Below are positions 2,270 through 31,364 of a stretch of DNA of 64,000 bases, piece after piece. Under the pieces are notes generated by a model. The model was not told the origin of the DNA. It did not search any database and saw only the letters and a list, made by a program, of their open reading frames with translations. Origin of the DNA: Candidatus Scatosoma sp. GTDB lineage: Bacteria > Bacillota > Clostridia > Christensenellales > Borkfalkiaceae. The stretch lies in assembly GCA_045128055.1 (NCBI GenBank), contig JBGVRC010000120.1:21133-85132 (forward strand), in the 5' to 3' direction. Position 1 is the stretch's first letter, and every line of letters begins with the position of its first letter. The position numbers were made by a program, and so were the translations under genes.

Positions 2270-2273
2270 AGGA

Positions 2274-3059: not shown

Positions 3060-3062
3060 AGC

Positions 3063-5090
3063 TTAACCAAGACGAGTGCCGCTCAAAACGTCCTTGTTTT
3101 CAGGCACGATCAAGGACAAAACGCCGTTTTCGTCTTCCGCCGCCATAATCATACCTTCGGACACGACGCCGCATACCTTTCTGGGCGCAAGGTTGGTGAC
3201 GAACACCACTTTTTTGCCTACCATTTCTTCGGGTTTGAAATGCTTTGCAATCCCCGAAACGATGGTGCGCGTTTCATCGCCGAATTTCACCGTTTCTTTC
3301 AAAAGCTTGGACGATTTGGGTACGGGCTCGCACGCGATAATTTCCCCTACGCGCAATTCCACTTTTAGAAAATCGTCAAAGGAAATTTCGGGCGTTTTTT
3401 CTTTTTCTTCTTCATTTTCCACACCCGTGTCCGTATTCACCGCATTTTCAGCGGGTTTTTGTTCGGTTGCTTGCGGAGCGGTTTTCGCCATTTCCGCCGC
3501 GTATGCCGCCGCTTGTTCTTCACGGATTTTTTCGATTGCAGGCGCAAGCGTCTTGAAATCCAAGCGCGCAAACAAGGGGGAAATCGCCGTCACCGTTACG
3601 CTGTCGCGAAGCGCAAAGCTTTCGCATTCTTCCAGCGTTCTGCTTACCCCGCCGTATGCCGCGAAGATTTTTTCGCTCGTTTCCGGCATAAAGCTGTCCA
3701 AAAGCGAAGCGCCGATTTGGATTGCTTCGGCAAGGTTATACAACACGTCGTTAAGACGCGCTTTCTTTGCTTCGTCCTTGGCGAGCGCCCAAGGCATCGT
3801 TTCATCGATGTATTTATTCGCACGGCGGAAAAGAGCAAACACTTCGCTGATTGCATCCGCAATACGCAATTCGTCCGCTTTCGCACGTACTTTGGATACA
3901 ACGCCCGTCACCGTTGCTTTAAATTCCGCGTCGGGATCTTCTTCGTTTGCAGGCAATGATTTTACAACCGTACCGCCGAAATATTTATCAATCATCGCAA
4001 TCGTACGGCTGACAAGGTTACCCAAAACGTTGGCAAGCTCGGTGTTGAAACGTTCGGTTACAAGTTCCCAAGTAATGGAACCGTCGTTGTCAAACGGCAT
4101 TTCGTGCAATACGAAATAGCGCACAGCATCCACCCCGAACAAACGCGCCAAATCATCCGCGTAAATCACGTTGCCTTTGGATTTACTCATTTTACCATCG
4201 CCTTGCAAAAGCCAAGGGTGGCCAAACACCTGCTTGGGCAAAGGTTCACCCAAAGCCATCAAGAAAATAGGCCAGTAAATGGTGTGGAAACGCAAAATAT
4301 CCTTACCGATAAGATGCAAATCCGCAGGCCAGTATTTTTTATATTTTTCGTCGTGGTTGCCATCCACGTCAAAGCCGATACCCGTGATGTAGTTGGTTAA
4401 GGCATCCAACCAAACGTATACAACGTGACGGCTGTCAAATTCTACGGGCACGCCCCACGTAAAGGACGTACGGGATACGCACAAATCCTGCAACCCCTTT
4501 AAAAGGAAGTTGTTCATCATCTCGTTTTTACGGGAAACGGGCTGAATAAACTCGGGATGGGTGTTGATATGCTCGATAAGCTTGTCCGCATACTTGCTCA
4601 TTTTAAAGAAGTACGCTTCTTCCTTCGCAGGCTTTACGTCCCTGCCGCAGTCGGGGCATTTCCCGTCTACAAGCTGGCTTTCCGTCCAGAAGGATTCGCA
4701 AGGAGTACAGTACATACCTTCGTAGTAGCCCTTGTAAATATCCCCTTGGTCGTAGAACTTCTTAAAAATTTTCGACACTTGTTTCACGTGATACTCGTCC
4801 GTCGTACGCATAAATTTATCGTACGAAGTGCCCATCAAGTCCCAAATGCCTTGGATATCACCCGCGATTTTATCCACGAAAGCCTGCGGCGTTACGCCTG
4901 CCGCTTCCGCTTTTTCCTGAATTTTTTGACCGTGTTCGTCCGTACCCGTTTGGAAGAAAACGTCATAGCCTTCCTTTCTTTTAAAGCGCGCGATCGCGTC
5001 CGCCAAAATCGCTTCGTAGGTGTTGCCGATGTGGGGCTTGCCCGAAGTATACGCAATCGCCGTCGTAATATAATAAGGTTTCTTTGCCAT
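3063..5090 (-). CDS. metG: methionine--tRNA ligase with C-terminal tRNA-binding domain
   Basis: 675 aa; class I HIGH-type motif (GKPHIGN) and KMSKS present. Confidence 0.95.
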   Translation of the reverse strand: MAKKPYYITTAIAYTSGKPHIGNTYEAILADAIARFKRKEGYDVFFQTGTDEHGQKIQEKAEAAGVTPQAFVDKIAGDIQGIWDLMGTSYDKFMRTTDEYHVKQVSKIFKKFYDQGDIYKGYYEGMYCTPCESFWTESQLVDGKCPDCGRDVKPAKEEAYFFKMSKYADKLIEHINTHPEFIQPVSRKNEMMNNFLLKGLQDLCVSRTSFTWGVPVEFDSRHVVYVWLDALTNYITGIGFDVDGNHDEKYKKYWPADLHLIGKDILRFHTIYWPIFLMALGEPLPKQVFGHPWLLQGDGKMSKSKGNVIYADDLARLFGVDAVRYFVLHEMPFDNDGSITWELVTERFNTELANVLGNLVSRTIAMIDKYFGGTVVKSLPANEEDPDAEFKATVTGVVSKVRAKADELRIADAISEVFALFRRANKYIDETMPWALAKDEAKKARLNDVLYNLAEAIQIGASLLDSFMPETSEKIFAAYGGVSRTLEECESFALRDSVTVTAISPLFARLDFKTLAPAIEKIREEQAAAYAAEMAKTAPQATEQKPAENAVNTDTGVENEEEKEKTPEISFDDFLKVELRVGEIIACEPVPKSSKLLKETVKFGDETRTIVSGIAKHFKPEEMVGKKVVFVTNLAPRKVCGVVSEGMIMAAEDENGVLSLIVPENKDVLSGTRLG

Positions 5091-17923: not shown

Positions 17924-19169
17924 CACCCACGCGCGCAATACCGTTCGGTATTATATTTTAATCCTTCTCGTACTTTCGTTTTTATTCTTTTCGGGGGATT
18001 TCGGCTTGTTAGACGTACAAAAAACAGCCCTTATCCTTGCCGTCGGCATAGACAAGGAAGAAGACGAGTTTATCATCACTTCGCAAATCGCCCTGCCGCA
18101 GGATTCCAAACAAGGCAAATCCACACAAACCGTCCAGCTCGTCAGCCACGGCAAAACGGTCGCCGACGCCTTTGAAGAAATCAACGCAAAAACAGGCTGG
18201 TATCCTAAGCTCGTCTTTTGCAACCTTATCGTTTTAGGCGAAAGCGCCGTAACGGAAGACGTATTCGGCTCGCTTGACTATTTCATTCGCGACGAGTATT
18301 TTTCCGATAACTGCCAAATCGCAACCTGCGACGGCTACGCAAAAGACCTGCTCAACGTTTCCGCGTTGGTCGACCCGTCCAGCAGCACCGCCATCGGCAA
18401 AGTCCTTTCCGCGCACGCCGAACGGCTTGGTACGGTGTTGCCCACCACCCTGCACGACTTCGCCATCGGCTATTACGGGGACGCGCAATGCGCCTTTGCG
18501 CCCATCGTCACCACTCAGCCCCAGCAAGAACCCACCGCAAACGGTGAAAAGGATTCGGGCAACCAAAGCGGTCAAGGCGGACAGGGCGGCCAAGACGGAG
18601 CAAGCGAGCAGGGCGGTCAAAGCGGTCAAAACGGACAAAGCGGCTTGGCGCAACAGGAAAAACCCGTGTTCAGCGCCCGCGAAACGGCTTTGTTTTTGCG
18701 CGGAAAACGAGTCGCCACGCTCACCGCAGAAGAAACCTTTGCTTTCAACGTCGTCATCGCTTCCTTAAAGCTCGCCCCGCTCACGGTCGAAAAAGACAGC
18801 GCCGCCTGCACCTTGACGATAAAACACAACGACCCCAAGCTTTCCTTGCGCGTTTCCCAGGACGGCAAAGCCACCCTTTTGGTCAAGGTCACGCTGACGG
18901 CGGGGATTTTGGACTATTCGCAATCCCTGCCGCTTGACAAAATCGCCGACGCAGGGGACGTGCCCGACGGCATCTTTTTCGCCGCGGAAAAGAAATTAGC
19001 CGCGGATATACACTCCGTTTTCGACAAAGCGAAAGCCAGCGGCTGCGACTTGTTTGGTATTCAAGACCTACTTTTAAAACACAAACCGCGAAGCTTGCAA
19101 AAATACCAAAACACCATTTTACAAAACACCGCCGCCGACGTCAAAATCCATTTCCGCAACCTGCGCTAA
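17916..19169 (+). CDS. spore germination protein, Ger(x)C family, with G/Q-rich insert
   Basis: Third gene of the gerA-type operon; start set at MHNTHARN (AAGGAG RBS); insert GNQSGQGGQGGQDGASEQGGQSGQNGQSG. Confidence 0.75.
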   Translation: MHNTHARNTVRYYILILLVLSFLFFSGDFGLLDVQKTALILAVGIDKEEDEFIITSQIALPQDSKQGKSTQTVQLVSHGKTVADAFEEINAKTGWYPKLVFCNLIVLGESAVTEDVFGSLDYFIRDEYFSDNCQIATCDGYAKDLLNVSALVDPSSSTAIGKVLSAHAERLGTVLPTTLHDFAIGYYGDAQCAFAPIVTTQPQQEPTANGEKDSGNQSGQGGQGGQDGASEQGGQSGQNGQSGLAQQEKPVFSARETALFLRGKRVATLTAEETFAFNVVIASLKLAPLTVEKDSAACTLTIKHNDPKLSLRVSQDGKATLLVKVTLTAGILDYSQSLPLDKIADAGDVPDGIFFAAEKKLAADIHSVFDKAKASGCDLFGIQDLLLKHKPRSLQKYQNTILQNTAADVKIHFRNLR

Positions 19170-19195
19170 GCTTTCCATTTTGCCTTTCTTTCTCT

Positions 19196-19622
19196 ATGTG
19201 GAAAACGGAAATTTATCCACATAGCTTTTTGTGAAAATGAAAAAATTATGCAATATTTTGTCAAATTATGCATATATCCACTTGGCAAAACCCCGCAAAA
19301 TTTCTATTTTGTGGATAAATAAGGGTTGTCCACCCGTCGATTTCACAAATTGTGGATAACTATCACAAATCCTTTGTGGATAAAAAAGCATTTTCACGGA
19401 TTTCAGGGATTAATCGGGCAAAAAGGGGGCTTTTTCTGTGGATAACTATACCAAAACAAGCTTTTTCAAATCCTTTCAAAACCCTTGTTTTGGTGGAAAA
19501 CTTTTCTTTCGGGTGTATAATTTGCTCTTTATGCACGCTTTTTTGAATAAAATCGGGGCATTTATCCACAAACAAACGTTCTTTTGTTGTTTTATCACAA
19601 AACTTATCCACAGTTATCCACA
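19196..19622. other. DnaA-box cluster 1 (oriC half or DnaA-titrating cluster)
   Basis: Perfect TTATCCACA/TGTGGATAA at 19213, 19310, 19351, 19375, 19437, 19562, 19604 and 19614; one-mismatch boxes at 19196 and 19592; AT-rich stretch 19231-19275; GGGTTGTCCACC at 19323. Confidence 0.8.
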
Positions 19623-19651
19623 CCAAGCCAAATATTTCCGTATGCATAAAA

Positions 19652-19686
19652 AGAAAAACCGCGGCTTTGCACGCCGCGATTTTTTA
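19652..19686. terminator. bidirectional intrinsic terminator (ends cvpA)
   Basis: CGCGGC-loop-GCCGCG stem flanked by an A-run and a T-run. Confidence 0.65.
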
Positions 19687-19713
19687 TGCCGAAAACCTTT
19701 TAAAATTCCGTTT

Positions 19714-20439
19714 TTATAACATCAAACCGAAACATTTGATAATCAAATTTTGTTCGTATAACCAAGATAAGAAAATGGCGTCGGACAAATAACCTTCAAT
19801 CGTAGCCGACGGCATTAAGGTTACGATACCCAAAATCGCGTAGATAATCAGCAAAGCCTGAAACACGCCCACGCACGCGCCCAAAACAGCGTTCAAAGTA
19901 CCCAAAATAGGCAACGATTTGATGACTGCGGACAGAATTTTTTTGATTAGGAACAAAAGAATAAAGCTGATTGCAAACACAATCGCGCCCGCAATCAAAA
20001 GGGATAAAAGCCTTGCGCAAACTTCGCCCAACACCATCGCAAGCGTCGTGTTTTCGGGCAAGCCTTCGCCCGCGCCAAACCATTTTGTCGCCAAGCTTAC
20101 CAACACGCCGGGTAAATCCTGCTCTTTTAACGCATTTTCCAAGCCGTCCGCCGAAATCACGACGGAAAAACCTTCCGATTCGCTAAACGATTGCGTAAAC
20201 GAAGCCGTCAAGGATTCCTGTACGCCGAACAAACCGCCCGTCATATTCAACGTCGCTTTCGCAAGAGAAAACGCCAAAATCAAAGAAATCGTCACCGTAA
20301 CAAAGCCAAAAAAGCACTCGATAAAACCTTTTCGCATACATACGATAACGTAGCCTATAATAAAAAGTATCGCGATGGCGTCCAGGATATAATGCGACCA
20401 TTGCACCGCGCATACGTTTTGTAAAACCCAAGAAAACAT
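19714..20439 (-). CDS. cvpA: CvpA family membrane protein
   Basis: 4-TM ORF resembling colicin V production protein; ATG at 20439 with GAAAGGTG RBS. Confidence 0.78.
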   Translation of the reverse strand: MFSWVLQNVCAVQWSHYILDAIAILFIIGYVIVCMRKGFIECFFGFVTVTISLILAFSLAKATLNMTGGLFGVQESLTASFTQSFSESEGFSVVISADGLENALKEQDLPGVLVSLATKWFGAGEGLPENTTLAMVLGEVCARLLSLLIAGAIVFAISFILLFLIKKILSAVIKSLPILGTLNAVLGACVGVFQALLIIYAILGIVTLMPSATIEGYLSDAIFLSWLYEQNLIIKCFGLML

Positions 20440-20606
20440 ACGACTTTTCACCTTTCTTCACTTTTTATTGTAGTAAAATTATAACACATTTTTTCCCTTT
20501 TTTCAATAGCTAATACCATTCTTTTTCTCTTTTTTCTTTCCAAAAAAAGGTTTATTTTCTCTCTTTTTGTCAATACTTTGAAAACCACCAAACAAAGGAG
20601 CGAACA

Positions 20607-21260
20607 ATGGAATATTCCTTTCATATATATAATAAGCTCGCCGCCGACGGCGTTACTATGTCCGCAGAAAAACTCTTACGCGAAGCTTTTCAACGGAAAA
20701 AAGACAAAATGACGGGGGCAGGTACGCGTTCAAACGAAAAAAATAGTGATTTTACACCCCAAGCAACCGCAAAAAACGAAGCCCCGCCCCCCGTCGTCGT
20801 TTGCGTGGGGAGCGACCTTGCCATCGGGGATAGCTTAGGCCCTATTTGCGGCTCTCTTTTAAAATACAAAACACAGGGGGTCCAATGCTTTTTGTACGGC
20901 ACGCTCGCCGCCCCCGTCACCGCAAAAGAAATTAAATATATGCGCTCCTTTTTAAAAAAGACCCACCCAAATAGCCCGATTTTGGCAATCGACGCGGCGG
21001 TGGGGGAGAAAGGGGACATCGGCGTTATCCGCGTCACCGACTCCCCCTTGTTTCCAGGCGCAGGCGCAAATAAGCAGCTCGGCAGTCTTGGCGACGTGTC
21101 TATTTTGGGTATCGTAGCCGAAAAATCGGTAACAAACTACGGCATTTTAAACACTACCCGATTGAATTTGGTGTATACCATGTCCGAGATTATTTCCGAA
21201 GGGGTGTCCGCTTTGCTTTGGGAGCAGGCAGGAAAATCCACTTACTTGCAAAATGCGTAA
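20607..21260 (+). CDS. yyaC: sporulation protein YyaC (GPR-like protease fold)
   Basis: 217 aa; VCVGSDLAIGDSLGPICG core typical of YyaC; about 60-aa variable N-terminal extension. Confidence 0.8.
   Translation: MEYSFHIYNKLAADGVTMSAEKLLREAFQRKKDKMTGAGTRSNEKNSDFTPQATAKNEAPPPVVVCVGSDLAIGDSLGPICGSLLKYKTQGVQCFLYGTLAAPVTAKEIKYMRSFLKKTHPNSPILAIDAAVGEKGDIGVIRVTDSPLFPGAGANKQLGSLGDVSILGIVAEKSVTNYGILNTTRLNLVYTMSEIISEGVSALLWEQAGKSTYLQNA
20711..20733 (+). repeat. dispersed motif M07 (G-run class)
   Basis: GACGGGGGCAGGTACGCGTTCAA; 15/15; sense in yyaC (TGAGTRS). Confidence 0.9.
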
Positions 21261-21276
21261 ACTTTATAAAAAACGA

Positions 21277-21306
21277 TTGACAAACCCCACGCCTTGGTCT
21301 TATAAT
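21277..21306 (+). promoter_or_regulatory. sigma-A-type promoter of queT
   Basis: TTGACA (21277-21282), 18 nt spacer, TATAAT (21301-21306). Confidence 0.6.
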
Positions 21307-21315
21307 AGAAAAACA

Positions 21316-21364
21316 AAGGAAGGTTTTCGGTAGAACACTTCCTTACAATAAAAAAACCGAGGAC
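21316..21364 (+). promoter_or_regulatory. preQ1-I-like riboswitch
   Basis: GGAAG...CUUCC P1 stem; loop UCGG can pair with CCGA after an A-rich tail (UUACAAUAAAAAAACCGAGGA), which would sequester the SD; lies upstream of queT, a known preQ1-regulated gene. Confidence 0.6.
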
Positions 21365-21370
21365 ACATAA

Positions 21371-21898
21371 ATGAAAACATCCATCACCAAGCGTCTTTGC
21401 CGCGCAGGTATTATCGCCGCGCTGTACACGACGTTGACGTACGTTTTTGCGCCCTTTGCCTTCGGACCTTTTCAAATCCGTCCCGCAGAGGCGCTTTGTC
21501 TTTTAGCTCTTATCTACCCCGAAGCCATACCCGCGCTTGCCGTTGGCTGCGCGCTGTCAAACTTGGCTTCACCCTACGCCTTTTACGATATAACGTTCGG
21601 ATCGCTCACAACCCTGCTTTCCGCGTTCATCACGTACCTGGTAGGGGCAAAATTAAAAAATAAGCCTTTAAAAATCTTCGTCGGCGGACTTTTTCCCGTC
21701 CTTTTAAACGCCTTTTTGATTCCGTTCGTCATCGTATTTTTATGCGACGGCGGTGGGGATTCCGTATGGGTGGCATACTTCACCTTTGTCGGCTCTATCT
21801 TCCTTACGCAAAGCGTTTGGGTGTACGGGCTCGGCGCGCCGTTATACGTTACGATTGCGCGTTTAAAGAAAAAAGGCGTCCGTTTTTTAGCGGATTGA
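21371..21898 (+). CDS. queT: queuosine precursor transporter QueT
   Basis: 175-aa 5-6 TM ORF with a QueT-like N-terminus (IAALYTTLTYVFAPFAFGPFQIRPAEAL). Confidence 0.85.
   Translation: MKTSITKRLCRAGIIAALYTTLTYVFAPFAFGPFQIRPAEALCLLALIYPEAIPALAVGCALSNLASPYAFYDITFGSLTTLLSAFITYLVGAKLKNKPLKIFVGGLFPVLLNAFLIPFVIVFLCDGGGDSVWVAYFTFVGSIFLTQSVWVYGLGAPLYVTIARLKKKGVRFLAD
21626..21649 (-). repeat. dispersed motif M08 (CCWGG class)
   Basis: + strand reads TTCATCACGTACCTGGTAGGGGCA; 14/15; in queT. Confidence 0.8.
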
Positions 21899-21962
21899 CC
21901 GCTTTTTCCCGATATTTTTAGCAAAAAATACCTTTTTCGCCAAAAAAATTTTCAAAAAAGTA

Positions 21963-21991
21963 TTGCATTTTGGCTTTGCGTGTAGTATAAT
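21963..21991 (+). promoter_or_regulatory. sigma-A-type promoter
   Basis: TTGCAT (21963-21968), 17 nt spacer, TATAAT (21986-21991). Confidence 0.55.
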
Positions 21992-22014
21992 ACATCTCCA
22001 AACAAAACTAAACA

Positions 22015-22061
22015 AACAACTTTCCGTAGTTTCTGTATCAAATACGGCAAAGTTGTTTTTT
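22015..22061 (+). terminator. leader terminator/attenuator hairpin upstream of 22078 gene
   Basis: AACAACTTTCCGTA / TACGGCAAAGTTGTT 14-bp stem (one bulge) followed by T6, ending 5 nt before the RBS. Confidence 0.6.
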
Positions 22062-22077
22062 AATATAGGAGTAAATT

Positions 22078-23193
22078 ATGAAGAGAAGATTTAAATTATC
22101 CACAGCGCTCGACATTGACGACGTTTTGATGGAATGTACGGCGTACGCAGTCAAGCTCGCCAACGAAAAATACAAATTTGACCCGCCCCTTTCCATTTAC
22201 GAAATCAAACAATGGGGCAAGCAGGGCACTCGCTCGGACGTGATACACGAATTTTTTTCCGACCCCGATTTCTATCGCACCCAACCCGTGATGGAAGGCG
22301 CAAAAGAATTCGTCCGCGAGCTTTCCAAACGCACGGAAGTATTCGTTTCCACGGCTATCCCGCCCGAGTTTATGGGCATTCGCGCTAAGCGTATCTTGGA
22401 AGAATTCCCCGAAATCCCCGCCGATCACATTTACATGGGCGCGCGCAAGGATAAAATCAAGGTGGACATTCTTTTCGACGACGGTATGCACAACGTAATG
22501 CGTTCCAGCGCGCAGTACCCCATTTTACGTCGTTGGCCTTGGAACCAAGCGGCTACGGGCGTGCTCGCCGTCAACACCTACGACGAATTTTTAAAGATGG
22601 TGGAAGTGATAGCCGACAGCTATTCGATAAAGCAAGACGCGGAGATTTTAAGCGAACCGAGCGCCGTCGTTTTCGTCGGACCTTCGGGCAGCGGGAAATC
22701 CAAGATCGCTACGCAAATTTTATCCAAGACGGATAAGTTTGAAAAACTCGTCAGCTACACCACCAAAGACCCCACCGCCGTCACACCCAACGCTTGGTAC
22801 AACTACGTTTCGGAAGAAACCTTTATCCAAATGAAAGAAAGCGGAGAGCTGTTTCAATCGACCATGTACGCAGGGCAGGGGTACGGCTCGAAAAAATCGG
22901 ACGTAGAAAAAATTCTATCTTCCGGAAAACACGTGTTGGCTACTATGGATATTTGCGGCGCGATGTCGCTCAAAACCAACTTCAAAAACGTTATCACCAT
23001 TTATATCAAGCGTGATAAAAAGGGCTTGCTTGGCAACATTTTGCGCAAAAACTCGTCCATCGAAGACAAAGTAAACCGCATCATCGCCATCGAATCGGAA
23101 GCGCAAACGGCGGCGATTTGCGATTACGTAGTCGAATTTGACAACTACGCAGACGCCATCGCGCAGGTCAACGAAATTTTAAAAATCAAATAA
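22078..23193 (+). CDS. fusion protein: HAD 5'(3')-deoxyribonucleotidase-like domain + guanylate-kinase-like P-loop domain
   Basis: 371 aa; N-terminal LDIDDVL HAD motif; C-terminal VGPSGSGKS Walker A and YTTKDP... GK-like segment. Confidence 0.65.
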   Translation: MKRRFKLSTALDIDDVLMECTAYAVKLANEKYKFDPPLSIYEIKQWGKQGTRSDVIHEFFSDPDFYRTQPVMEGAKEFVRELSKRTEVFVSTAIPPEFMGIRAKRILEEFPEIPADHIYMGARKDKIKVDILFDDGMHNVMRSSAQYPILRRWPWNQAATGVLAVNTYDEFLKMVEVIADSYSIKQDAEILSEPSAVVFVGPSGSGKSKIATQILSKTDKFEKLVSYTTKDPTAVTPNAWYNYVSEETFIQMKESGELFQSTMYAGQGYGSKKSDVEKILSSGKHVLATMDICGAMSLKTNFKNVITIYIKRDKKGLLGNILRKNSSIEDKVNRIIAIESEAQTAAICDYVVEFDNYADAIAQVNEILKIK

Positions 23194-23195
23194 AG

Positions 23196-23235
23196 CAAAA
23201 AACGACCCGTTTTTCGGGTCGTTTCGTTTTTATTT
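23196..23235 (+). terminator. intrinsic terminator
   Basis: AACGACCCG-TTTTT-CGGGTCGTT stem followed by a T-rich run. Confidence 0.75.
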
Positions 23236-23240
23236 CTTGT

Positions 23241-23264
23241 TTCATCGCGTACATGGTACGACTA
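23241..23264 (-). repeat. dispersed motif M09 (CATG class)
   Basis: + strand reads TTCATCGCGTACATGGTACGACTA; 15/15; intergenic after a terminator. Confidence 0.9.
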
Positions 23265-23318
23265 TTTTCCTTTTCTGCAATAAAAAGCTCCGTTTGTACG
23301 GAGCTTTTTTCTCATTGT

Positions 23319-23594
23319 TTACGCGTTGGGATAAACGCTTGCTTTTTTCTTGTCTTTGCCCATTCTTTCATAACGAACAACGCCGTCAACAAGAGCAAAC
23401 AACGTATCGTCTTTGCCGATGCTTACGTTCGTGCCGGGATGAATTTTCGTACCTCTTTGGCGAACGAGAATGTTGCCAGCGAGAACAGCTTGACCATCGC
23501 TACGCTTTACGCCAAGTCTTTTCGCTTCGCTGTCTCTACCGTTGTGGGAAGAGCCGGTACCTTTTTTATGAGCGAATAAACTGATAAAAATCAT
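23319..23594 (-). CDS. rpmA: 50S ribosomal protein L27 with N-terminal propeptide
   Basis: 91 aa; MIFISLF precedes the conserved AHKKGTGSS mature N-terminus. Confidence 0.95.
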
Positions 23595-23659
23595 CTTTAT
23601 TTCTCCTTAAATTCAAATTTTCCTGTCCTTTTTATCAGGACGAAGTGCAGCATAAGTAA

Positions 23660-23965
23660 TTAGAGTTCGATCTTTTCAACTTTTACTGCGGTGAAGGGCT
23701 GTCTGTGACCCTGCTTCTTACGTTCGTTTTTCTTAGCTTTGTACTTGAAGACGATGATTTTCTTCGCCTTGTCTTGCTTAACGACCGTAGCGGTAACTTT
23801 TGCGGATTCAACTTCCGCGCCCGTCTTGATACCGTTTTCGTCAGCAACCATCAATACTTTGAAGGATACGGTTTCGCCTTCCGCTGCTGCGAGCTTTTCA
23901 ACTCTTACAACGTCGCCTTCCGCTACTTTGTATTGCTTGTTGCCGTTATCGATGATAGCGTACAT
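23660..23965 (-). CDS. rplU: 50S ribosomal protein L21
   Basis: 101 aa starting [14 protein letters not shown]. Confidence 0.95.
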
Positions 23966-24085
23966 AAAAAGTTTTTACCTCCTCTTTCCAGTCTCGAAGA
24001 ATATCCAAGGCGCAGCATTTTATAAAAAATTGCTGACTTAAAAAAGCCCGTTTCTATCGGCTCGACTATCACTATACCATATTTT
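23966..24085 (-). promoter_or_regulatory. possible L21-operon leader
   Basis: On the - strand, a TATAGT -10 box followed by AGCC...GGCT + T6 hairpin and a second CAGCA...TGCTG hairpin before the rplU RBS. Confidence 0.35.
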
Positions 24086-24167
24086 TTTCGCTTCCGTCAA
24101 GCATTTTTGCTTTATTTTGCGTATTTTTTTACTTTTTTTCAGCATACTAAACGAAAAGGAGAGATTT

Positions 24168-24614
24168 ATGGAAAACAAAGCAATCAAAAAAACGGAAGAA
24201 GCCCTTGCGGAAATTTATCGCAACGCCCAACTCGCGCTCGTGTCCATTTCTGACATTTTGCCCGCTGTGGAAGACGAAACGATTAAAAACGAGCTGCATT
24301 CTCAACACGAAGAATACGAACGCTTTTCGGCAAAAGCCGCCGTTCTTGCCCGCGATATGGGCTTGGAATTAAAAGAACCCAACCCTATGAAAAAGGCTAT
24401 GATGTGGGGTTCTATCAAAATGAACACGTTGACGGACAACTCCCGCTCGCACATCGCGGAAATGATGGTGCAGGGCACGGTTATGGGCATCACCGCTCTC
24501 CGCGCGACGGCAGGGGACGTACCCGCCGACGGCAATCAGGAAATCATTTCCCTTTTAAACGAGATGATCCACAAGGAAGAACAGTTTGAAAAAACGTGGA
24601 AAAACTACCTTTAA
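24168..24614 (+). CDS. hypothetical helical protein
   Basis: 148 aa from MENKAIKK (AAGGAG RBS); no family recognised. Confidence 0.6.
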   Translation: MENKAIKKTEEALAEIYRNAQLALVSISDILPAVEDETIKNELHSQHEEYERFSAKAAVLARDMGLELKEPNPMKKAMMWGSIKMNTLTDNSRSHIAEMMVQGTVMGITALRATAGDVPADGNQEIISLLNEMIHKEEQFEKTWKNYL

Positions 24615-24636
24615 TATCTTTTCAATGCATCATAAG

Positions 24637-24660
24637 ACCCGCCGCAAGGCGGGTTTTTTG
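24637..24660 (+). terminator. intrinsic terminator
   Basis: ACCCGCC-GCAA-GGCGGGT followed by T6. Confidence 0.8.
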
Positions 24661-24680
24661 TCTTGTACCCATATTATTAT

Positions 24681-24704
24681 TTCAACGCGTACCTGCCCCC
24701 GTCG
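24681..24704 (-). repeat. dispersed motif M10 (G-run class)
   Basis: + strand reads TTCAACGCGTACCTGCCCCCGTCG; 15/15; intergenic. Confidence 0.9.
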
Positions 24705-24711
24705 TTTTTCA

Positions 24712-24735
24712 TTTAACCCGTACCTGGTATGCCCG
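24712..24735 (-). repeat. dispersed motif M11 (CCWGG class)
   Basis: + strand reads TTTAACCCGTACCTGGTATGCCCG; 13/15; in tandem with M10. Confidence 0.7.
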
Positions 24736-25013
24736 TTTTACCAAACAAAGCTTTTCAAGCGGGGAATATTTTTATATATTCCCCAAGAAAATATCCCCCG
24801 TTCCTTTACTTTTTTAAAAATTTGTGTTATAATGGAAAATGCGAGAGAATACGGGGTTTTCTCCACAACAACGAAACGGGGAGAAAACCAACCATTTTTT
24901 GCCCATTCTCCCGTGATAGCAAAAATAAAAATTTAAGAGATTATTCTATAATCTCTTAAAAGTATAAAAAACACTTATATTTTATCGGGATTTTTACCCC
25001 GAAAAAGGATACT

Positions 25014-25988
25014 ATGCAAACGCTTTTTCAGTCTTTAAAGGCATACCGCCTTATCAAAACCGAATATGCGGAAAACAAGCTTTCGCACGCGTATATGCTC
25101 TTGTTCGACGATACGCGCAATCTTCGTTTCGCTTTAAAAACGTTTGCAAAAATTTTCTTTTGCGAAGACGAATTTTCCCCCGATTTCGCCCGTATTTCTT
25201 CCCTTATCGACGACGAAGCTTTTTCCGATTGTTTGCTTTTCCCTGCCGAAAAGGACAAAAAGATTAAGGTGGAAGACGCGGAAAAAATCGTAGAAGAAAG
25301 CCTTTTAACCCCCGTCGAAGGGGATAAAAAGCTGTTTGTCATCGGCGACTTTGCCGAAGCTAACGTACAAACACAAAACAAGCTTTTAAAGCTCTTGGAA
25401 GAACCGCCCAAAGGCGTGTATTTCCTTTTGGGCGCAACTTCTCCCCACTCCGTCCTTACCACCGTCTTATCCCGCGTAAAAACGCTGGAAATAAACGGGT
25501 TTGAAACAAATTTACTCACCCAGGCGTTGGCGCGGATTTACGGCGATAAATACGAAAAAACCGCCCTTTCCTTGTGCGCGGCGGCAGCGGACGGAAGCCT
25601 TGGCAAAGCGCAAAATATGCTGGAAGGCGGGTATTACAAAAACCTTTTGGAAGACGCAAAAGAGCTGTGTCTTTGCGAGAATTACCGCTTGCCGAGCGTA
25701 GTGAAAACGGTTGGCGAAACCAAACGCCAAAAAGAATTTTTATCCGTTTTACGGCTGATTTTCAGGGACGCTTTGGTGTTGAAAGCCCAAGGCAAAGCGG
25801 GCGAGAAAAATCTTCTTTTGCAAGCGGAAAAATCCGCTTTGTACGAAGTGGCGGAAAAATACTCCGCCCACGCGCTCTTGTTTGCGCAAGAAGCCCTTTC
25901 CGCAGCGGAAAAACAAATCTTCACAAACGCGAATTTCGCGCAATGTATAGAAATTTGCGCGGCAAAAATCCGAAAAGAAAACAAATAA
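25014..25988 (+). CDS. holB: DNA polymerase III delta' subunit
   Basis: 324 aa; LSHAYML start region and NKLLKLLEEPP box; followed by yaaT as in Bacillus. Confidence 0.85.
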   Translation: MQTLFQSLKAYRLIKTEYAENKLSHAYMLLFDDTRNLRFALKTFAKIFFCEDEFSPDFARISSLIDDEAFSDCLLFPAEKDKKIKVEDAEKIVEESLLTPVEGDKKLFVIGDFAEANVQTQNKLLKLLEEPPKGVYFLLGATSPHSVLTTVLSRVKTLEINGFETNLLTQALARIYGDKYEKTALSLCAAAADGSLGKAQNMLEGGYYKNLLEDAKELCLCENYRLPSVVKTVGETKRQKEFLSVLRLIFRDALVLKAQGKAGEKNLLLQAEKSALYEVAEKYSAHALLFAQEALSAAEKQIFTNANFAQCIEICAAKIRKENK

Positions 25989-26018
25989 GCAGCGGTTATG
26001 TCTGCATAAGGAATATTT

Positions 26019-26879
26019 ATGATAAAAGTAGTTGGTATTAAATTTAAAAACGGCGGGAAGCTGTATTACTTTTCGCCCAAAGCAGGGGACGTGTACGAAC
26101 GGAATATGCCCGTCGTTGTGGAAACTTCGCGCGGTTTGGAATACGCTTGGGTGGCGTATCCCGAAAAAATCGTTTCCGACGACGAAGTGGTACAACCCTT
26201 AAAGCCCGTCATTCGTATCGCCACGCAAAAGGACAAAGAATATTACGCCGCTTGCGAAGCAAAACGCCCGCAAGCTATGCAAATTTGCAGGGAAAAAATA
26301 GCGGCGCGGGGCTTGGAAATGAAGCTTGTTGACTGCGAATACGCTTTTGACGGCAGTAAGATTTCTTTCTTTTTCACGTCCGACAATCGCGTGGATTTCA
26401 GAGAGCTTGTCAAAGATTTGGCTTCCACTTTCCATTCCCGTATCGAGCTTCGCCAAGTGGGTACGCGCGACGAAACCAAGTATTTGGGCGGGCTTGCGCC
26501 CTGCGGCAGAATTTGTTGCTGCGCGGGGAATATGCCCGAATTTAAAAAGGTGAGCGTGAAGATGGCGAAAACGCAGGGTCTTTCCTTGAACCCCGGTAAA
26601 ATCAGCGGGCTTTGCGGTAGGTTGATGTGCTGTTTGAGCTATGAAAACGATTACTATGCCGAAGCCAGCAAGAAAATGCCGAAAATCGGCTCGGAAGTCA
26701 GCACGCTGGAAGGCAAGGGCATCGTCGTGTCCGTCAATATGCTGAAAATGCAGGTAAAAGTGAAGATTGACGATAGAAACGGCGACTGGATTTATAAGGA
26801 TTTCGACGTGGAAGACGTACGCTTTAAAAAGCCTATCAACAGCGACAAAGCGGACGATGACGACAAAGATGATGAATAA
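26019..26879 (+). CDS. yaaT: PSP1-domain stage 0 sporulation protein YaaT/RicT
   Basis: 286 aa; PSP1 core and Cys-rich CGRICCC / CGRLMCCL motifs. Confidence 0.9.
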   Translation: MIKVVGIKFKNGGKLYYFSPKAGDVYERNMPVVVETSRGLEYAWVAYPEKIVSDDEVVQPLKPVIRIATQKDKEYYAACEAKRPQAMQICREKIAARGLEMKLVDCEYAFDGSKISFFFTSDNRVDFRELVKDLASTFHSRIELRQVGTRDETKYLGGLAPCGRICCCAGNMPEFKKVSVKMAKTQGLSLNPGKISGLCGRLMCCLSYENDYYAEASKKMPKIGSEVSTLEGKGIVVSVNMLKMQVKVKIDDRNGDWIYKDFDVEDVRFKKPINSDKADDDDKDDE

Positions 26880-26888
26880 TAACTAAAT

Positions 26889-27067
26889 TTGCCCTTGCGG
26901 GCAAGTGAAGTTTACTTTGTAAGTGAAGTTATCCTTTGGATAGTGAAGTTTTGCCTTTGGCAAAGTAAAAAATAATTTCCATAACTTGCGCACAGCGCAA
27001 ACTTCACTTGTTTATAAACAAACTTCACTGCGTAGCAACTTCACTTTCGCGACAGCGAAAACTTCAC
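26889..27067. repeat. array of 8 distinct mini-hairpins separated by a constant heptamer (GTGAAGT x3, then ACTTCAC x4)
   Basis: Hairpins: TTGCCC/GGGCAA, TTAC/GTAA, TATCC/GGATA, TTTGCC/GGCAAA, TTGCGC/GCGCAA, TTGTTTA/TAAACAA, TGC/GCA, TTTCGC/GCGAAA. GTGAAGT at 26905, 26923, 26943; ACTTCAC at 27001, 27022, 27038, 27061. Confidence 0.9.
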
Positions 27068-27072
27068 CCTTA

Positions 27073-27129
27073 ACAAGCCACCAGGTATGCGATGAAATAG
27101 AAAAAACAGCCTTTTTAGGGCTGTTTTTT
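27073..27129. repeat. 57-nt repeat copy A (motif M12 + terminator hairpin)
   Basis: 27073-27109 is identical over 37 nt to 34796-34832, and near-identical through the CAGCC...GGCTG hairpin and T-run. Confidence 0.9.
27075..27096 (+). repeat. dispersed motif M12 (CCAGG class)
   Basis: AAGCCACCAGGTATGCGATGAA; 14/15; part of repeat copy A. Confidence 0.85.
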
Positions 27130-27816
27130 GTTTTGATCAATTATTGCCAATAAAACGGAATAAACGTCTCTATTACATTTTTCAATAGGGCTATTGTATT
27201 CATATGTAGGCTCAATAATATCGGATAAATAAATTATAACTCCGTCCACATGATGATTTGTTATTGTTTCACTGTTGGCTGTTTCCGTTGCCGTTGCTGC
27301 GCCGATAATTGCACCCGCTTCCCCAGCTATAAGCCCACCTAAAAAAGCTCTTCCTATTGCTTTATTTTTATTTGTATCGGTTTTTGTATGATGGGAAGTG
27401 GAAATTTTTAATTCCGCTTTTATAATTTTTTCAAAAGTAATAACTTTTTTTCCAAAGATTAAAAACTTATTTTTCTCATCTATAGCAACAATCCAATTTC
27501 TTTTTATATCCACCAATTCTTCGCTCTCATCATAAAAACCTATTATTTTAGATATTTTATAATTTTGATTTAACCAATTAAAATACGCTTCTTTTACTTT
27601 TTCTATCCTTTCCTTTTCTTTCTTCCTTTCTTCTTCTTTTTTCATTTTTGCTTTTTCTTCGCTTTCTTTTTCAAGCTTTAACATTTTAATAATAAAAATA
27701 ATCATAGCTATACCAAAAAGTATAACACCTATAATAGAAAGCTCTGTCATATTTACAAACATACTGGCACAAATAAATACTAATGCCAATATTATAAAAA
27801 AAATAAAAAGTTTCAT
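27115..27816 (-). CDS. hypothetical membrane protein (2 TM + charged coiled coil + Gly-zipper)
   Basis: 233 aa from MKLFIFFIIL (AGGAGC RBS); KMKKEEERKKEKERIEK; GGLIAGEAGAIIGAA; the ORF-track extension to 27918 was rejected. Confidence 0.6.
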   Translation of the reverse strand: MKLFIFFIILALVFICASMFVNMTELSIIGVILFGIAMIIFIIKMLKLEKESEEKAKMKKEEERKKEKERIEKVKEAYFNWLNQNYKISKIIGFYDESEELVDIKRNWIVAIDEKNKFLIFGKKVITFEKIIKAELKISTSHHTKTDTNKNKAIGRAFLGGLIAGEAGAIIGAATATETANSETITNHHVDGVIIYLSDIIEPTYEYNSPIEKCNRDVYSVLLAIIDQNKKQP

Positions 27817-27884
27817 AAAAGCTCCTAAAAATAAAAAAGTACGCCAACCGAAGCTGACGTACAAAAACACAGACTCCGATTGTC

Positions 27885-28025
27885 GCTCAACAAACTTTAC
27901 GTGAAATGGGTAAAACACTTACATAAAAAGAATCTGTATTTTATCAAATTCAATATGTAAGTGCGCAAAAAAGAGCTATTTTTACAAAAAAATAAACCCA
28001 AATTCACCTATTAAGTTTGTTGAGC
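27885..28025. repeat. nested inverted repeats in AT-rich spacer
   Basis: Outer GCTCAACAAACTT (27885-27897) / AAGTTTGTTGAGC (28013-28025); inner CACTTACAT (27916-27924) / ATGTAAGTG (27955-27963). Confidence 0.7.
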
Positions 28026-28071
28026 ATTATTAGTATAACACATATTCATTTTTTTATCAAGTATATTTATA

Positions 28072-28106
28072 AAAAAAGAAAAACTCCGATTTTGTCGGAG
28101 TTTTTT
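28072..28106 (-). terminator. intrinsic terminator of rsmG (bidirectional shape)
   Basis: AAACTCCGA-loop-TCGGAGTTT with A-run and T-run flanks. Confidence 0.75.
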
Positions 28107-28107
28107 G

Positions 28108-28806
28108 TTATAATATAGGATTCTTTCGTTCCTTGCCTTGTCCGCGGGGATATTTCGGGGGAGTGGGGCTCGTCTTTTTCACCACCGCCAACACCCGTTC
28201 GCCGTAGTTTTCCGGCAATTCGTATGCATACGCCTTTTCCAGCTTACCGCCCAAAACCTTATACGCCGTTTTCGCTTCGTCGATTTCCGTTTTGTCGCCG
28301 CTCTTGTACGCGATAAAGCTTCCGCCGACCTTGACAAAGGGCATACAGTATTCGCAAAGGGTGTTCATTCTCGCCACCGCGCGCGCCGTTACGCAATCGT
28401 ATTTTTCCCGAAAATTTTTATCCCGCGCCGCGTCTTCCGCGCGAATGTTATAAATATGCACGTTTTGCATATTCAACTTATCCACAACCACTTTCAAAAA
28501 CTCGCATTTTTTCCCCACGCTTTCAAAAAGATCAAAGGATAAATCGTCGCGTAAAATTTTTAAGACCATCGACGGAAAACCCGCGCCCGAGCCGATTTCC
28601 GCCACTTTCGCGTTGGTTTTAAACAAATCCATACCCGCCGCGCTGTCTAAAAAATGCTTGTACGTGACGTCTTTTTCTTCCAAAATCGCCGTCAGATTGT
28701 ATTTTTGATTGTATTCCAAGAGAAAAGCACGAAAAATTTCCAACTTTTCCCGCTTTTCTCCTAAAATCTCTTGTTCGTAAATCGCGTAAATATCTCTCAT
28801 TTCCAT
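28108..28806 (-). CDS. rsmG: 16S rRNA (guanine527-N7)-methyltransferase RsmG/GidB
   Basis: 232 aa; EIGSGAGFPS SAM loop; typical GidB length. Confidence 0.92.
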   Translation of the reverse strand: MEMRDIYAIYEQEILGEKREKLEIFRAFLLEYNQKYNLTAILEEKDVTYKHFLDSAAGMDLFKTNAKVAEIGSGAGFPSMVLKILRDDLSFDLFESVGKKCEFLKVVVDKLNMQNVHIYNIRAEDAARDKNFREKYDCVTARAVARMNTLCEYCMPFVKVGGSFIAYKSGDKTEIDEAKTAYKVLGGKLEKAYAYELPENYGERVLAVVKKTSPTPPKYPRGQGKERKNPIL

Positions 28807-28868
28807 AGCTCCTTTATTATACCACCTTTTTTATCAAATAGCAATCCTTTTTTTATACTTTTCCCCAG

Positions 28869-29123
28869 CTTTCCACAGCGGTGTAGATAGTTTTATCCAC
28901 AATGTTTATAACTGCTGTGGATTACTCAATTTTTGTATAATTATACATTTTATTTTTGTATTTTTTCCGATGAATTTTATATTTTTTCACTTTTTTATAC
29001 ACTTTTCCACAAAATTTCCACTTTTTTATCCACCTAAAAAATAGGGGTTGTCCACCGCTTGAAAAATCGCGCAAACCCTTTATATTCCAAGGAAAAATTT
29101 GGCTTTTTTAGGGGTTGTCCACA
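28869..29123. other. DnaA-box cluster 2 with AT-rich putative unwinding tract, adjacent to dnaN
   Basis: Perfect TTATCCACA at 28893; one-mismatch boxes at 28916, 29003, 29026 and 29115; AGGGGTTGTCCAC at 29043 and 29110; 75-nt AT-rich run 28925-29000. Confidence 0.7.
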
Positions 29124-29326
29124 TATCCCCACGCCCTACTACTAATACTTCTACTTTTTATTTATATAAAATATAATCAATCGACAAAAACGGACGGCTG
29201 AACAAAGAGCAAAGCTTGGAAAAATTTTTTAAATTTTCGACAAAAAAGATGACAGTAGTCCGTTGACAAAAACAAAAGCTGTGTTATAATATAACACGAA
29301 AGAAAAAACAAGGAGAAAAATGCGCT

Positions 29327-29824
29327 GTGGAACAGCTTTGTTTCGATACGATAAACGATAAAAAGCCCGCAAAAAGCTGCGTCTTTACCGGGCATAGAAT
29401 ATTAGACGACGATTTTTCTCCGCGCGCCTTAAAAAAAGAGATAAAAAACGCCGTTTTGCAAGGGGTGGAAGTCTTTTACAACGGTATGGCGATGGGGTTT
29501 GATTTGGCTGCCGCCGAAGCCGTTTTATCCCTGCGAAAAAAATTTCCGCAAATCAGGCTTGCTGCTTGCGTACCCTGCTACGGTCAGGAAAAAAACTTTT
29601 CCGATAAGGATAAAAAACGGTACGTAAATATTTTAAAAAAAGCGGATGAGAAGGTGGTTTTGTCCGAATATTATTATAAGGGTTGTATGCACGTTCGGGA
29701 TAAATATATGGTGGATTTAGGGGATATGATGATTTGCTATTGCAAAAAAGAAACGGGGGGCGCGGCGTTTACCTTGCGGTATTTCCAAAAGAAAAAGCCC
29801 ACGGCGAAAATAGTTTTTATTTAG
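29327..29824 (+). CDS. SLOG-fold DUF1273 (YpsA-like) protein
   Basis: 165 aa; FTGHR...GMAMGFDLAAAEAVL...ACVPC pattern typical of DUF1273; GTG start after AAGGAG. Confidence 0.65.
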   Translation: MEQLCFDTINDKKPAKSCVFTGHRILDDDFSPRALKKEIKNAVLQGVEVFYNGMAMGFDLAAAEAVLSLRKKFPQIRLAACVPCYGQEKNFSDKDKKRYVNILKKADEKVVLSEYYYKGCMHVRDKYMVDLGDMMICYCKKETGGAAFTLRYFQKKKPTAKIVFI

Positions 29825-29936: not shown

Positions 29937-31043
29937 ATGAAATTTGTATGTGACGGAATGGTTCTTTCGGACGCGGCGTTTACCGTATGCAAGGCTTGCG
30001 CGGTAAAAACCATCACCCCTGTTTTGGAATGTATCAAGCTCAAAGCGGAAAACGACGGGTTGACCTTGACTGCGTACGACGGCGAAATTTCCATTAAAAA
30101 GAAAATCAACGCGGAAATTATGGAAGAAGGCGAAGTTTGCGTAAACGGCAAAACGTTTGCCGATTTCGTGGGGAAAATTTCTTCCTTTGAAGTCGTTATT
30201 CATACCGAAGAAAACGGTATGTTTATTAAATATGGCGACAGCGAATCCCGTATGCAAATTCTTCCCGCGGACGATTTTCCTCGTATCAATAAATCGTTGG
30301 ACGGCAAGGAGTATTTCGAAATCAAGGAAAGAGATTTAAAAAACTTGATTGCAAAAATCGTATTTTGTTGCGCTACGGACGAAAGCAGACCTATTTTGAA
30401 AGGCACTTTGTTGGAAGCGAAAAACGGAGCTTTGGAATGTACCGCTCTCGACGGGTTTAGAATGGCGTACGGCGCTTGCGAAACGCAGGAAACGAGCGCG
30501 GATATGAAAATCGTTTGCCCGGCAAGAACGCTTTTGGAAATTTCCCGTATGCTCGGCGATGAAGAAAATATCAAGGTTTACGCGGACAAAAATTCCCTTT
30601 CCGTTACGGTAAAGGACACCGTTATCACGTCCCGTTTGTACGCAGGCGAATTTGTAAAAAGAGAAAATATCTATCCCATCGATTTCACCACCTACGTATC
30701 GGTGAACAGAGCGGAGCTTATCGACAGCGTAGAACGCGCTTCCGTTTTGATCCGCGGGGATAAAAACAACCTTATTACCTTTGATATCAAAAACGGTAAA
30801 ATCGTATTGACGGCAAATTCGGACATGGGTAAAGTAGAAGAAAGCGTAGCGGCGAATTTGGACGGTAAGGAACTGAAAATCGCTATGAACGGCAAGTATT
30901 TGTTGGACGCGGTGAAGGCTTTGGAAGAAGACGAAGTGTTGCTTTCCTTCAATACGTCCGTATCCCCTTTCACGCTGGAAAACGCTGCGGAAAAGAAATG
31001 CAAATACTTAATTCTCCCCGTACGTACGGGCGCAGGTCAGTAA
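29937..31043 (+). CDS. dnaN: DNA polymerase III beta sliding clamp
   Basis: 368 aa, three-domain clamp length; MKFVCDG... with PILKGTLLEA, typical of DnaN. Confidence 0.95.
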   Translation: MKFVCDGMVLSDAAFTVCKACAVKTITPVLECIKLKAENDGLTLTAYDGEISIKKKINAEIMEEGEVCVNGKTFADFVGKISSFEVVIHTEENGMFIKYGDSESRMQILPADDFPRINKSLDGKEYFEIKERDLKNLIAKIVFCCATDESRPILKGTLLEAKNGALECTALDGFRMAYGACETQETSADMKIVCPARTLLEISRMLGDEENIKVYADKNSLSVTVKDTVITSRLYAGEFVKRENIYPIDFTTYVSVNRAELIDSVERASVLIRGDKNNLITFDIKNGKIVLTANSDMGKVEESVAANLDGKELKIAMNGKYLLDAVKALEEDEVLLSFNTSVSPFTLENAAEKKCKYLILPVRTGAGQ

Positions 31044-31229: not shown

Positions 31230-31364
31230 ATGAAAAGAACCTATCAACCCAAAAAGAGACAGAGAAGCAAAGTACACGGTTTCCGTAAGAGAATGGCTAC
31301 GACCGCAGGCAGAAAGGTTTTGAAAAGACGTAGAGCAAAGGGCAGAAAGAGATTGACCCACTAA
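31230..31364 (+). CDS. rpmH: 50S ribosomal protein L34
   Basis: 44 aa [44 protein letters not shown]; AGGAG RBS; below the ORF-track size cutoff. Confidence 0.95.

Follow-up and report, generated by a model that had tools for sequence, protein, structure and literature searches.

In a 64,000-nt stretch of contig JBGVRC010000120.1 from a Candidatus Scatosoma sp. genome (hereafter the window), two clusters of DnaA boxes are found about 9.6–9.7 kb apart: cluster 1, between the gerA operon and cvpA, and cluster 2, between rsmG and the ypsA-dnaN operon. According to our analysis, cluster 2 (~28,869–29,181) is probably the chromosomal origin of replication (oriC), cluster 1 a satellite DnaA-box cluster (DBC), and the dnaA gene unlinked from the origin throughout the family. 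Both elements are of known kinds, present here in an unusual gene context and in an uncharacterised lineage. An earlier reading of the same DNA, made from its letters and without database searches (the sequence-only reading), had left three options open: a bipartite origin split by unrelated genes, one true oriC accompanied by a DBC-like DnaA-binding cluster, or a dnaA gene relocated elsewhere. The evidence favours the second of them; the third holds too and is compatible with it, and the first is disfavoured for the reasons given below.

Both clusters are real and stand far above chance. The window contains 11 perfect TTATCCACA boxes, against 0.24 expected and with none of 100 shuffles reaching that number, and 43 boxes with up to one mismatch, against 9.9 expected. 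The extended box GGGTTGTCCAC occurs exactly three times in the 64 kb (19323, 29045 and 29112; 0.03 expected) and is confined to the two clusters. This agrees with the extended variant that the sequence-only reading had described as common to both, except that the copy in cluster 1 carries GGG and not GGGG. The nine perfect boxes formerly counted in cluster 1 turned out to be eight perfect ones and one with a single mismatch, while the count given for cluster 2 was accurate, with one perfect box (28893) and four one-mismatch boxes (28916 on the minus strand, 29003, 29026 and 29115).

Cluster 2 has the anatomy of a complete origin. Between 28869 and 29131 it is intergenic and contains these five boxes with at most one mismatch as well as weaker ones. 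The boxes of its assembly part are located at 28869 (two mismatches), 28893, 28916, 29003, 29014, 29026 and 29047, and all but one of them point towards an unwinding module that follows. Published rules for finding the basal unwinding system (BUS) of bacterial origins ask for a DnaA box with no more than two mismatches, an optional second box with no more than four, a spacer of up to 16 bp and at least three DnaA-trios of the form NAN, GAT being the commonest trio nearest the box (PMC8287927). All of these are present in cluster 2. Its seven trios begin 12 bp past the better box of the pair, after the GC spacer CGCC, and read 3'-GAT GAT GAT TAT GAA GAT GAA-5' on the other strand, so that the first three are GAT. 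The 12-bp spacer falls inside the published 10–13 bp peak (PMC8287927), and the module is likewise placed at the GC-skew switch. The trios lead into an AT-rich DNA unwinding element (DUE), and the 30-mer at 29152–29181 is 93% A+T and the second least stable of the 64 kb, with a ΔG of −26.7 against a mean of −40.3. The sequence-only reading had proposed a 75-nt AT-rich tract as resembling an unwinding element. This tract exists (28925–29000), but the role of unwinding element probably falls to the AT stretch linked to the trios (29136–29181), just past the point at which that reading had ended cluster 2.

Order and polarity in cluster 2 are the same as in the incC/BUS region of Bacillus subtilis, where DnaA-boxes 6 and 7, the trios and an AT-rich element are located upstream of dnaN (PMC6669920, PMC8287927). 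The likeness includes the box pair in a common orientation, the short GC spacer, the repeated 3'-GAT-5' trios, the AT-rich element and the dnaN operon.

Strand composition points to the same place. The sequence-only reading had suggested a GC-skew analysis, with a minimum far from the window speaking for two non-origin sites; the cumulative G−C minimum, computed over the 64-kb window, lies at 29,191, on cluster 2. On the plus strand, GC skew at third codon positions (GC3 skew) takes negative values in all genes between 5.2 and 28.8 kb, including the plus-strand genes between the clusters, and mostly positive ones from 29.3 kb rightwards. This change of sign puts the switch at cluster 2 and not at cluster 1, which is off it. 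Besides, the highly expressed genes rplU and rpmA run in the same direction as a fork from 29 kb would, and would meet one from 19.4 kb head-on. The four leftmost genes (189–5090, minus strand, including metG) differ from the remaining left arm, with a GC3 skew near zero or slightly positive, which may be due to a recent rearrangement or to codon-usage effects. Spo0A boxes (TTCGACA) were not enriched in the window (6 against 10.6 expected), and the sole candidate given by a parS search of the window was a 14/16 match at 4780–4795, inside metG.

In order to place these features in a family context, we used 153 related loci, each covering up to ±10 kb around dnaN, which came from two scans. The Scatosoma-like loci are the best DnaN matches, at up to 80% identity, and belong to metagenome-assembled genomes (MAGs) of Candidatus Scatosoma or of unclassified Clostridia from the guts of ruminants, chickens and humans. 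A DnaN-profile scan provided a sister clade with ~50% DnaN identity, carrying the labels Coproplasma, Borkfalkiaceae and 'uncultured Christensenella'; Coproplasma is a member of the Christensenellales, family Borkfalkiaceae (PMC8035907). In 58 Scatosoma-like loci and 52 loci of the sister clade, besides the window, an nhmmer profile of the unwinding module gave exactly one match each. These matches all lay next to rsmG or dnaN, none of them in a second cluster, and the Scatosoma-like loci without a match were mostly ones whose sequence is cut short upstream of dnaN. Synteny shows that the linkage between rsmG and the origin module is also kept in relatives. Over the 58 loci, the conservation footprint covers the boxes at 28893, 28916, 29003, 29014, 29026 and 29047 together with the unwinding module, and the AT tract at 28925–29000 is conserved at its left end only, where a palindrome sits. 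This palindrome could be a promoter or the site of a dimeric factor. The promoter assigned to the ypsA-dnaN operon points away from the DUE and is moderately conserved. The features of the window are collected in Table 1.

Table 1. Features of the two DnaA-box clusters and of the genes around them (positions within the 64-kb window; a dot marks features given without strand).
Feature	Position	Strand	Basis or remark
DnaA-assembly part of the predicted oriC	28869..29057	+	boxes listed in the text; conserved across 58 loci
BUS box pair, with GGGG before it	29115..29131	+	TTGTCCACA, 1 mismatch; overlapping ATATCCCCA, 2 mismatches
Seven DnaA-trios, CTA CTA CTA ATA CTT CTA CTT	29136..29156	+	read from sequence
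AT-rich DUE, predicted first strand-opening site	29157..29181 (25 nt)	.	stability
Perfect 14-bp palindrome TGTATAATTATACA, conserved in oriC	28935..28948	.	footprint; reads −10-like on both strands
Promoter of the ypsA-dnaN operon, TTGACA-16(TG)-TATAAT	29263..29290	+	12/12 consensus match
Perfect DnaA box inside rsmG, codons 107-110	28478..28486	+	apparently kept at synonymous sites
Satellite cluster (putative DBC)	19197..19622	.	8 perfect and 1 one-mismatch box in 426 bp
Best-conserved core, TGTGGATAA-ATAA-GGGTTGTCCACC...TGTGGATAA	19310..19359	.	conservation 0.9-1.0 per column, 41 sequences
Tandem perfect boxes TTATCCACAGTTATCCACA, 10-bp pitch, cassette end	19604..19622	+	box scan
cvpA intrinsic terminator, bidirectional in form, right edge of cassette	19654..19684	-	terminator scan
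gerAA, gerAB, gerAC	left of cluster 1; gerAC ends 19169	+	Pfam/translations
cvpA	right of cluster 1; ends 19714	-	Pfam/translations
DUF1256/YyaC, queT	between clusters	+	Pfam/translations
NT5C-guanylate kinase fusion	22078-23193, between clusters	+	Pfam/translations
rpmA and rplU	23319..23965, between clusters	-	translations clearly L27, L21
165-aa ORF, holB, PSP1/RicT	between clusters	+	Pfam/translations
Gut-1 RNA (Rfam RF01706)	26880-26954, directly 3' of PSP1/RicT	+	59.9 bits, full length
PH_gly_zipper protein	between clusters, before rsmG	-	Pfam/translations
rsmG (gidB), left neighbour of oriC	28108..28806	-	Pfam GidB, E 3e-46
YpsA/SLOG (DUF1273), between oriC and dnaN	29327..29824	+	Pfam YpsA, E 2.4e-18
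dnaN	29937..31043	+	Pfam/translations
rpmH, then rnpA, yidD, yidC, jag	rpmH 31230-31364, 3' of dnaN	all +	Pfam/translations

The perfect DnaA box within the coding sequence of rsmG is also a conserved one, being perfect in 53 of the 60 Scatosoma-like loci, compared with 16 of 72 sister-clade species. Its codons are GTT in 48, GTG in 56 and GAT in 55 of those 60 loci, and the adjacent codons vary freely. Such a pattern strongly suggests that the box is kept by selection at synonymous sites, and the box field of the origin seems to extend 415 bp into the rsmG coding sequence.

The module formed by rsmG, the box array and the BUS is inverted as a whole relative to ypsA/dnaN in L005, L007, L008, L010, L017 and L018, and likewise in L033, L053, L055, L056 and L069. 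In these relatives, which differ in this from B. subtilis, the trios point away from dnaN, and in L007 the module is 5.5 kb from it. One Scatosoma MAG, L068, lacks rsmG and ypsA in the 10 kb preceding dnaN, and neither DnaA boxes nor an unwinding module are seen there; this may reflect an insertion, a rearrangement or a misassembly.

Regarding dnaA, we used B. subtilis DnaA as tblastn query, which is practically identical to PDB 8btg (991 bits in our validation) and also detected the DnaA proteins of Thermotoga and Aquifex. The query found no match in the 64-kb window at E ≤ 10, and regular expressions for the DnaA hallmark motifs found none in the window either, in line with the sequence-only reading, which had seen no DnaA-like ORF there. 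The 6.3 kb beyond the left end of the window (L156) gave no DnaA match either, so that the negative covers ~35 kb on the left of the origin (window plus L156) and 35 kb on its right; nor did tblastn find DnaA within ±10 kb of dnaN in the 153 related loci. The clear selection on the boxes means that a DnaA protein must be present, and its gene would have moved. From these sequence searches, dnaA appears to be unlinked from oriC and dnaN family-wide and to sit elsewhere in the genome.

The gene context of cluster 2 is the one that the sequence-only reading had described, namely rsmG on the minus strand at one side and a YpsA/SLOG (DUF1273) gene followed by dnaN at the other. It departs from the rnpA-rpmH-dnaA-dnaN context, which has been called conserved throughout Firmicutes (PMC7561715): here dnaN adjoins oriC, dnaA is absent, and rpmH-rnpA-yidD-yidC-jag come downstream of dnaN on the same strand. 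Compared with B. subtilis oriC, cluster 2 lacks a dnaA gene upstream, has rsmG at its left and a YpsA/SLOG gene between the DUE and dnaN, and the rpmH-rnpA-yidD-yidC-jag genes follow dnaN instead of lying divergently upstream of dnaA. The context is typical rather than defining, as can be seen in Escherichia coli, in which oriC and dnaA occupy different loci after an ancient rearrangement (PMC8287927) and a gid gene adjoins oriC, as here. Unlike E. coli, whose origin has a weak BUS score (PMC8287927), this Bacillota lineage shows a strong canonical BUS beside dnaN.

Cluster 1 is of a different kind. Its perfect boxes are located at 19213+, 19310−, 19351−, 19375−, 19437−, 19562+, 19604+ and 19614+, and its one-mismatch box, TTTTCCACA, at 19197−; with a weaker box included, their order is < > < < < < (weak <) > > >. 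As the sequence-only reading had stated, the cluster is found between the gerA operon and cvpA, where it occupies the space between the 3' ends of the convergent gerAC (ending at 19169) and cvpA (ending at 19714). When the window is aligned with 40 homologous clusters, the boxes appear as conserved islands separated by variable spacers, and pitches of 41 and 10 bp recur. The first of these is the start-to-start spacing between the outer boxes of the core, seen in nearly all relatives. This footprint indicates that selection has maintained the boxes of cluster 1 among relatives. An exact 43-mer taken from cluster 1 had no match in the collection of species-representative genomes.

A second unwinding module in cluster 1 was considered and rejected, with no trio run after any of its boxes and no match to the BUS profile in cluster 1 or in any homologous satellite cluster. 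The least stable 30-mer of the cluster (ΔG −30.8) is unremarkable. A conserved promoter, small RNA (sRNA) or small ORF was likewise rejected on the conservation footprint and on the lack of an Rfam match.

Satellite clusters are prevalent among the Scatosoma-like loci. Exactly one was found in 31 of the 39 loci with enough flanking sequence, at distances of 4.3 to 13.2 kb from the BUS (median 8.7 kb) and with a median of 10 boxes, 5 of them perfect. Considering all 36 loci with a satellite, it is on the right side in 31 and on the left in 5. After applying the same strict threshold to the sister clade, we identified one satellite in 11 of 31 loci, with a median of 6 boxes (3 perfect), always on the left, 2.3 to 5.0 kb from the BUS and between divergent ftsH and DUF1256 genes. 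The satellite is flanked by gerAC and cvpA in most cases and by gerAC and rpmA in L023 and L035, and in L054, L056 and L063 its neighbours are ftsH on one side and cvpA or DUF1256 on the other. In the window, the block comprising gerA, the cluster, cvpA, DUF1256 and queT is inverted and on the opposite side of the origin from the usual one; with the change of side and the inversion combined, the orientation of the block relative to the direction of the fork is kept. The ftsH gene of the window, at 62290–64000 on the plus strand, runs past its right end and has no boxes in its upstream region.

The cluster itself also changes orientation. Relative to its conserved flanks, it has one orientation in some species and the opposite one in others, and the two orientations are interleaved on a neighbour-joining tree of YidC and Jag, which requires at least five inversions. 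Comparing sister species shows that what is inverted is the whole intergenic cassette, as in L057 (19177–19625) against L032 (17483–17015), with colinear flanks. Extended DnaA boxes in inverted orientation mark the two ends of the cassette, matching at 14 of 14 positions in L057 and over 16 nt at 94% in L032; in the window, these terminal inverted boxes are the tandem pair at one end and the inverted box 19197–19205 at the other. Within the species of the window, no flip was detected in Logan contigs from eight gut metagenomes, all of which had the orientation of the window and no strand-change joints, although contigs could miss rare variants. In run X1, the metagenome that best matches the window, contigs break at both borders of cluster 1 (19168–19191 and 19614–19635) and a 468-nt contig of lower depth lies between the breaks, which may come from a strain mixture or from an orientation polymorphism. 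Whatever its role, cluster 1 performs it in both orientations and on both replichores, beside varied genes, and is near oriC throughout.

We propose that DnaA would fill the like-oriented box array at 28,869–29,131, polymerise from the terminal box pair onto the seven trios at 29,136–29,156 and open the AT-rich element at 29,157–29,181, with unwinding predicted at 29.16 kb. The helicase would be loaded there, and replication would proceed both ways from ~29.15 kb. Cluster 1 would be a separate, origin-proximal array of high-affinity boxes able to bind a sizeable number of DnaA molecules. Being close to the origin, it would be replicated only seconds after initiation and thereby double its binding capacity, buffer or lower the DnaA available to oriC and restrain early re-initiation. 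By analogy with B. subtilis, a brake or buffer on initiation is the most likely role of cluster 1.

In B. subtilis, oriC-proximal DBCs are reported to restrain initiation in a dosage-dependent manner, and clusters of this kind are said to occur commonly in the vicinity of oriC among Firmicutes (Okumura et al. 2012, PMC3245932). Cluster 1 resembles them (DBC[yydA-yycS], for instance) in its dense consensus boxes, its lack of an unwinding element, its proximity to oriC and its conservation in related species. The effect of a DBC is predicted from origin-near gene dosage and not from its exact position, which fits the variable position of cluster 1. There are also differences: B. subtilis has six dispersed DBCs, as opposed to the single and much closer satellite (2–13 kb) of each origin region here. 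Moreover, unlike the B. subtilis DBCs, the satellite of the Scatosoma-like genus is found between convergent 3' ends, with no neighbouring promoter to regulate, and forms a cassette bounded by inverted boxes and repeatedly inverted. Cluster 1 is comparable as well to E. coli datA, another non-origin cluster of high-affinity boxes, which lowers the initiation potential after firing, although box number and arrangement differ between the two. datA acts through IHF-dependent hydrolysis of DnaA-ATP and is located ~470 kb from oriC. IHF is not expected in Bacillota.

Several points weigh against this interpretation. DnaA binding, unwinding and the effect on initiation timing are all deduced from the DNA, and the position of dnaA was not found by searches of the window, its left extension and the 153 loci. 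Of the 39 Scatosoma-like loci with good coverage, 8 showed no satellite within 10 kb, among them L003, the closest relative. In B. subtilis, from which the titration role is borrowed, deleting any one DBC changes little, and how these clusters act is itself unsettled (PMC3245932). Finally, the conserved 41- and 10-bp spacings, like the strong persistence of the satellite close to oriC, would be compatible, too, with an element that helps the origin in cis. Melting of the Clostridioides difficile origin in vitro requires both of its sub-origins (PMC7561715), which sets a precedent within Clostridia for a distal box cluster aiding oriC.

The main rival is a long-range bipartite origin, with cluster 1 equivalent to B. 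subtilis incA/B or C. difficile oriC1 and a DnaA loop over 9.6 kb being needed for, or strongly helping, the opening of the DUE. The arrangement is indeed similar to the bipartite origins of B. subtilis (incAB/incC), C. difficile and Helicobacter pylori (oriC1/oriC2), with one cluster that has a DUE and trios and a box-rich one without a DUE (PMC7561715, PMC3479198). The boxes of cluster 1 are more numerous and better than those of oriC, as in incA/B, the rare extended box is common to these two clusters only, and, with its internal spacings conserved, the satellite has stayed within 2–13 kb of oriC despite many rearrangements; the in vitro melting of the C. difficile origin would fit too. However, the known bipartite origins are split by a single gene (dnaA, ~1.4 kb) and have a fixed geometry, while here ~9.6 kb and 11 genes intervene, with no dnaA between, and distance (2.3–13.2 kb), side, orientation and flanking genes all vary. 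In addition, cluster 2 alone has seven to nine boxes and a complete BUS, and 8 of the 39 well-covered relatives had no satellite within 10 kb. We consider such an origin unlikely. Rather unlikely, too, is the related idea of the satellite as a mobile, orientation-independent enhancer, a distal half of oriC that would loop via DnaA over 2–13 kb from either replichore and be flipped between its terminal inverted boxes; if true, the origin would be bipartite over a long range, and this in a lineage where dnaA and oriC have come apart as well.

One could also think that cluster 1 serves mainly in transcription, with DnaA regulating or roadblocking its neighbours (gerA read-through, cvpA, or ftsH/DUF1256 in the sister clade) or a small RNA or peptide, as the sda DBC does in B. 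subtilis. Some B. subtilis DBCs do regulate their neighbours (PMC3245932), the sister-clade cluster lies in the divergent ftsH/DUF1256 promoter region, and in L056 and L063 the cluster is upstream of ftsH. The window itself has a promoter-like site at 19494–19521 and a plus-strand terminator at 19660–19678, which together would give a transcript of ~150 nt across three boxes. The −10 of this site is not conserved, though, with a per-column identity to the window of 0.0–0.7, cluster 1 has no Rfam match, and the sole ORFs run through the boxes without a ribosome-binding site. Besides, the cluster lies between convergent 3' ends in the window and in most Scatosoma-like genomes, the neighbours differ among species, and the cassette flips relative to both of them without being lost. 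A mainly transcriptional role is therefore distinctly unlikely overall: regulation of a neighbour or of a small transcript is unlikely in the Scatosoma-like genus, and regulation of neighbours is plausible at the ftsH/DUF1256 promoter region of the sister clade.

The last alternative to a DBC is that of a functionless relic, the old box region upstream of dnaA left behind when the gene moved. dnaA is clearly gone from the origin region in this family, and promoters of dnaA typically carry perfect boxes at high density. A relic should by now have decayed, however, and these boxes have stayed perfect, with their spacing kept, across species whose DnaN proteins are 50–80% identical and whose spacers have diverged; the cluster also persists in two sister clades with different gene contexts. 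We regard this explanation as highly improbable.

The segment between the clusters contains 11 genes and one sRNA, with dnaA not among them; the gene map is based on Pfam matches and translations. A further perfect DnaA box was observed at 22096–22104, 18 nt into the NT5C-guanylate kinase fusion ORF. L003 also has a perfect box (16042) at the 5' end of the same gene, and DnaA may thus control an enzyme of the nucleotide pool.

Taken together, these results would place the origin of an uncultured lineage of gut Clostridia, the Scatosoma-like group related to Borkfalkiaceae and Coproplasma, within a few tens of bases. They describe a whole-family exception to the rnpA-rpmH-dnaA-dnaN context of Bacillota, in which the unwinding module of B. 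subtilis type has been kept almost letter for letter. Origin finders anchored on dnaA or on the densest box cluster would pick the wrong site here, the latter because cluster 1 has more perfect boxes than the probable true origin. Two features are of most interest, namely that dnaA has parted from a canonical unwinding module across the family and that the satellite is mobile and repeatedly inverted. Moved, swapped between replichores and flipped many times, and yet found within a few kb of oriC, this satellite amounts to a natural experiment, and its persistence supports the idea from B. subtilis that such clusters depend on being near the origin rather than on where exactly they lie.

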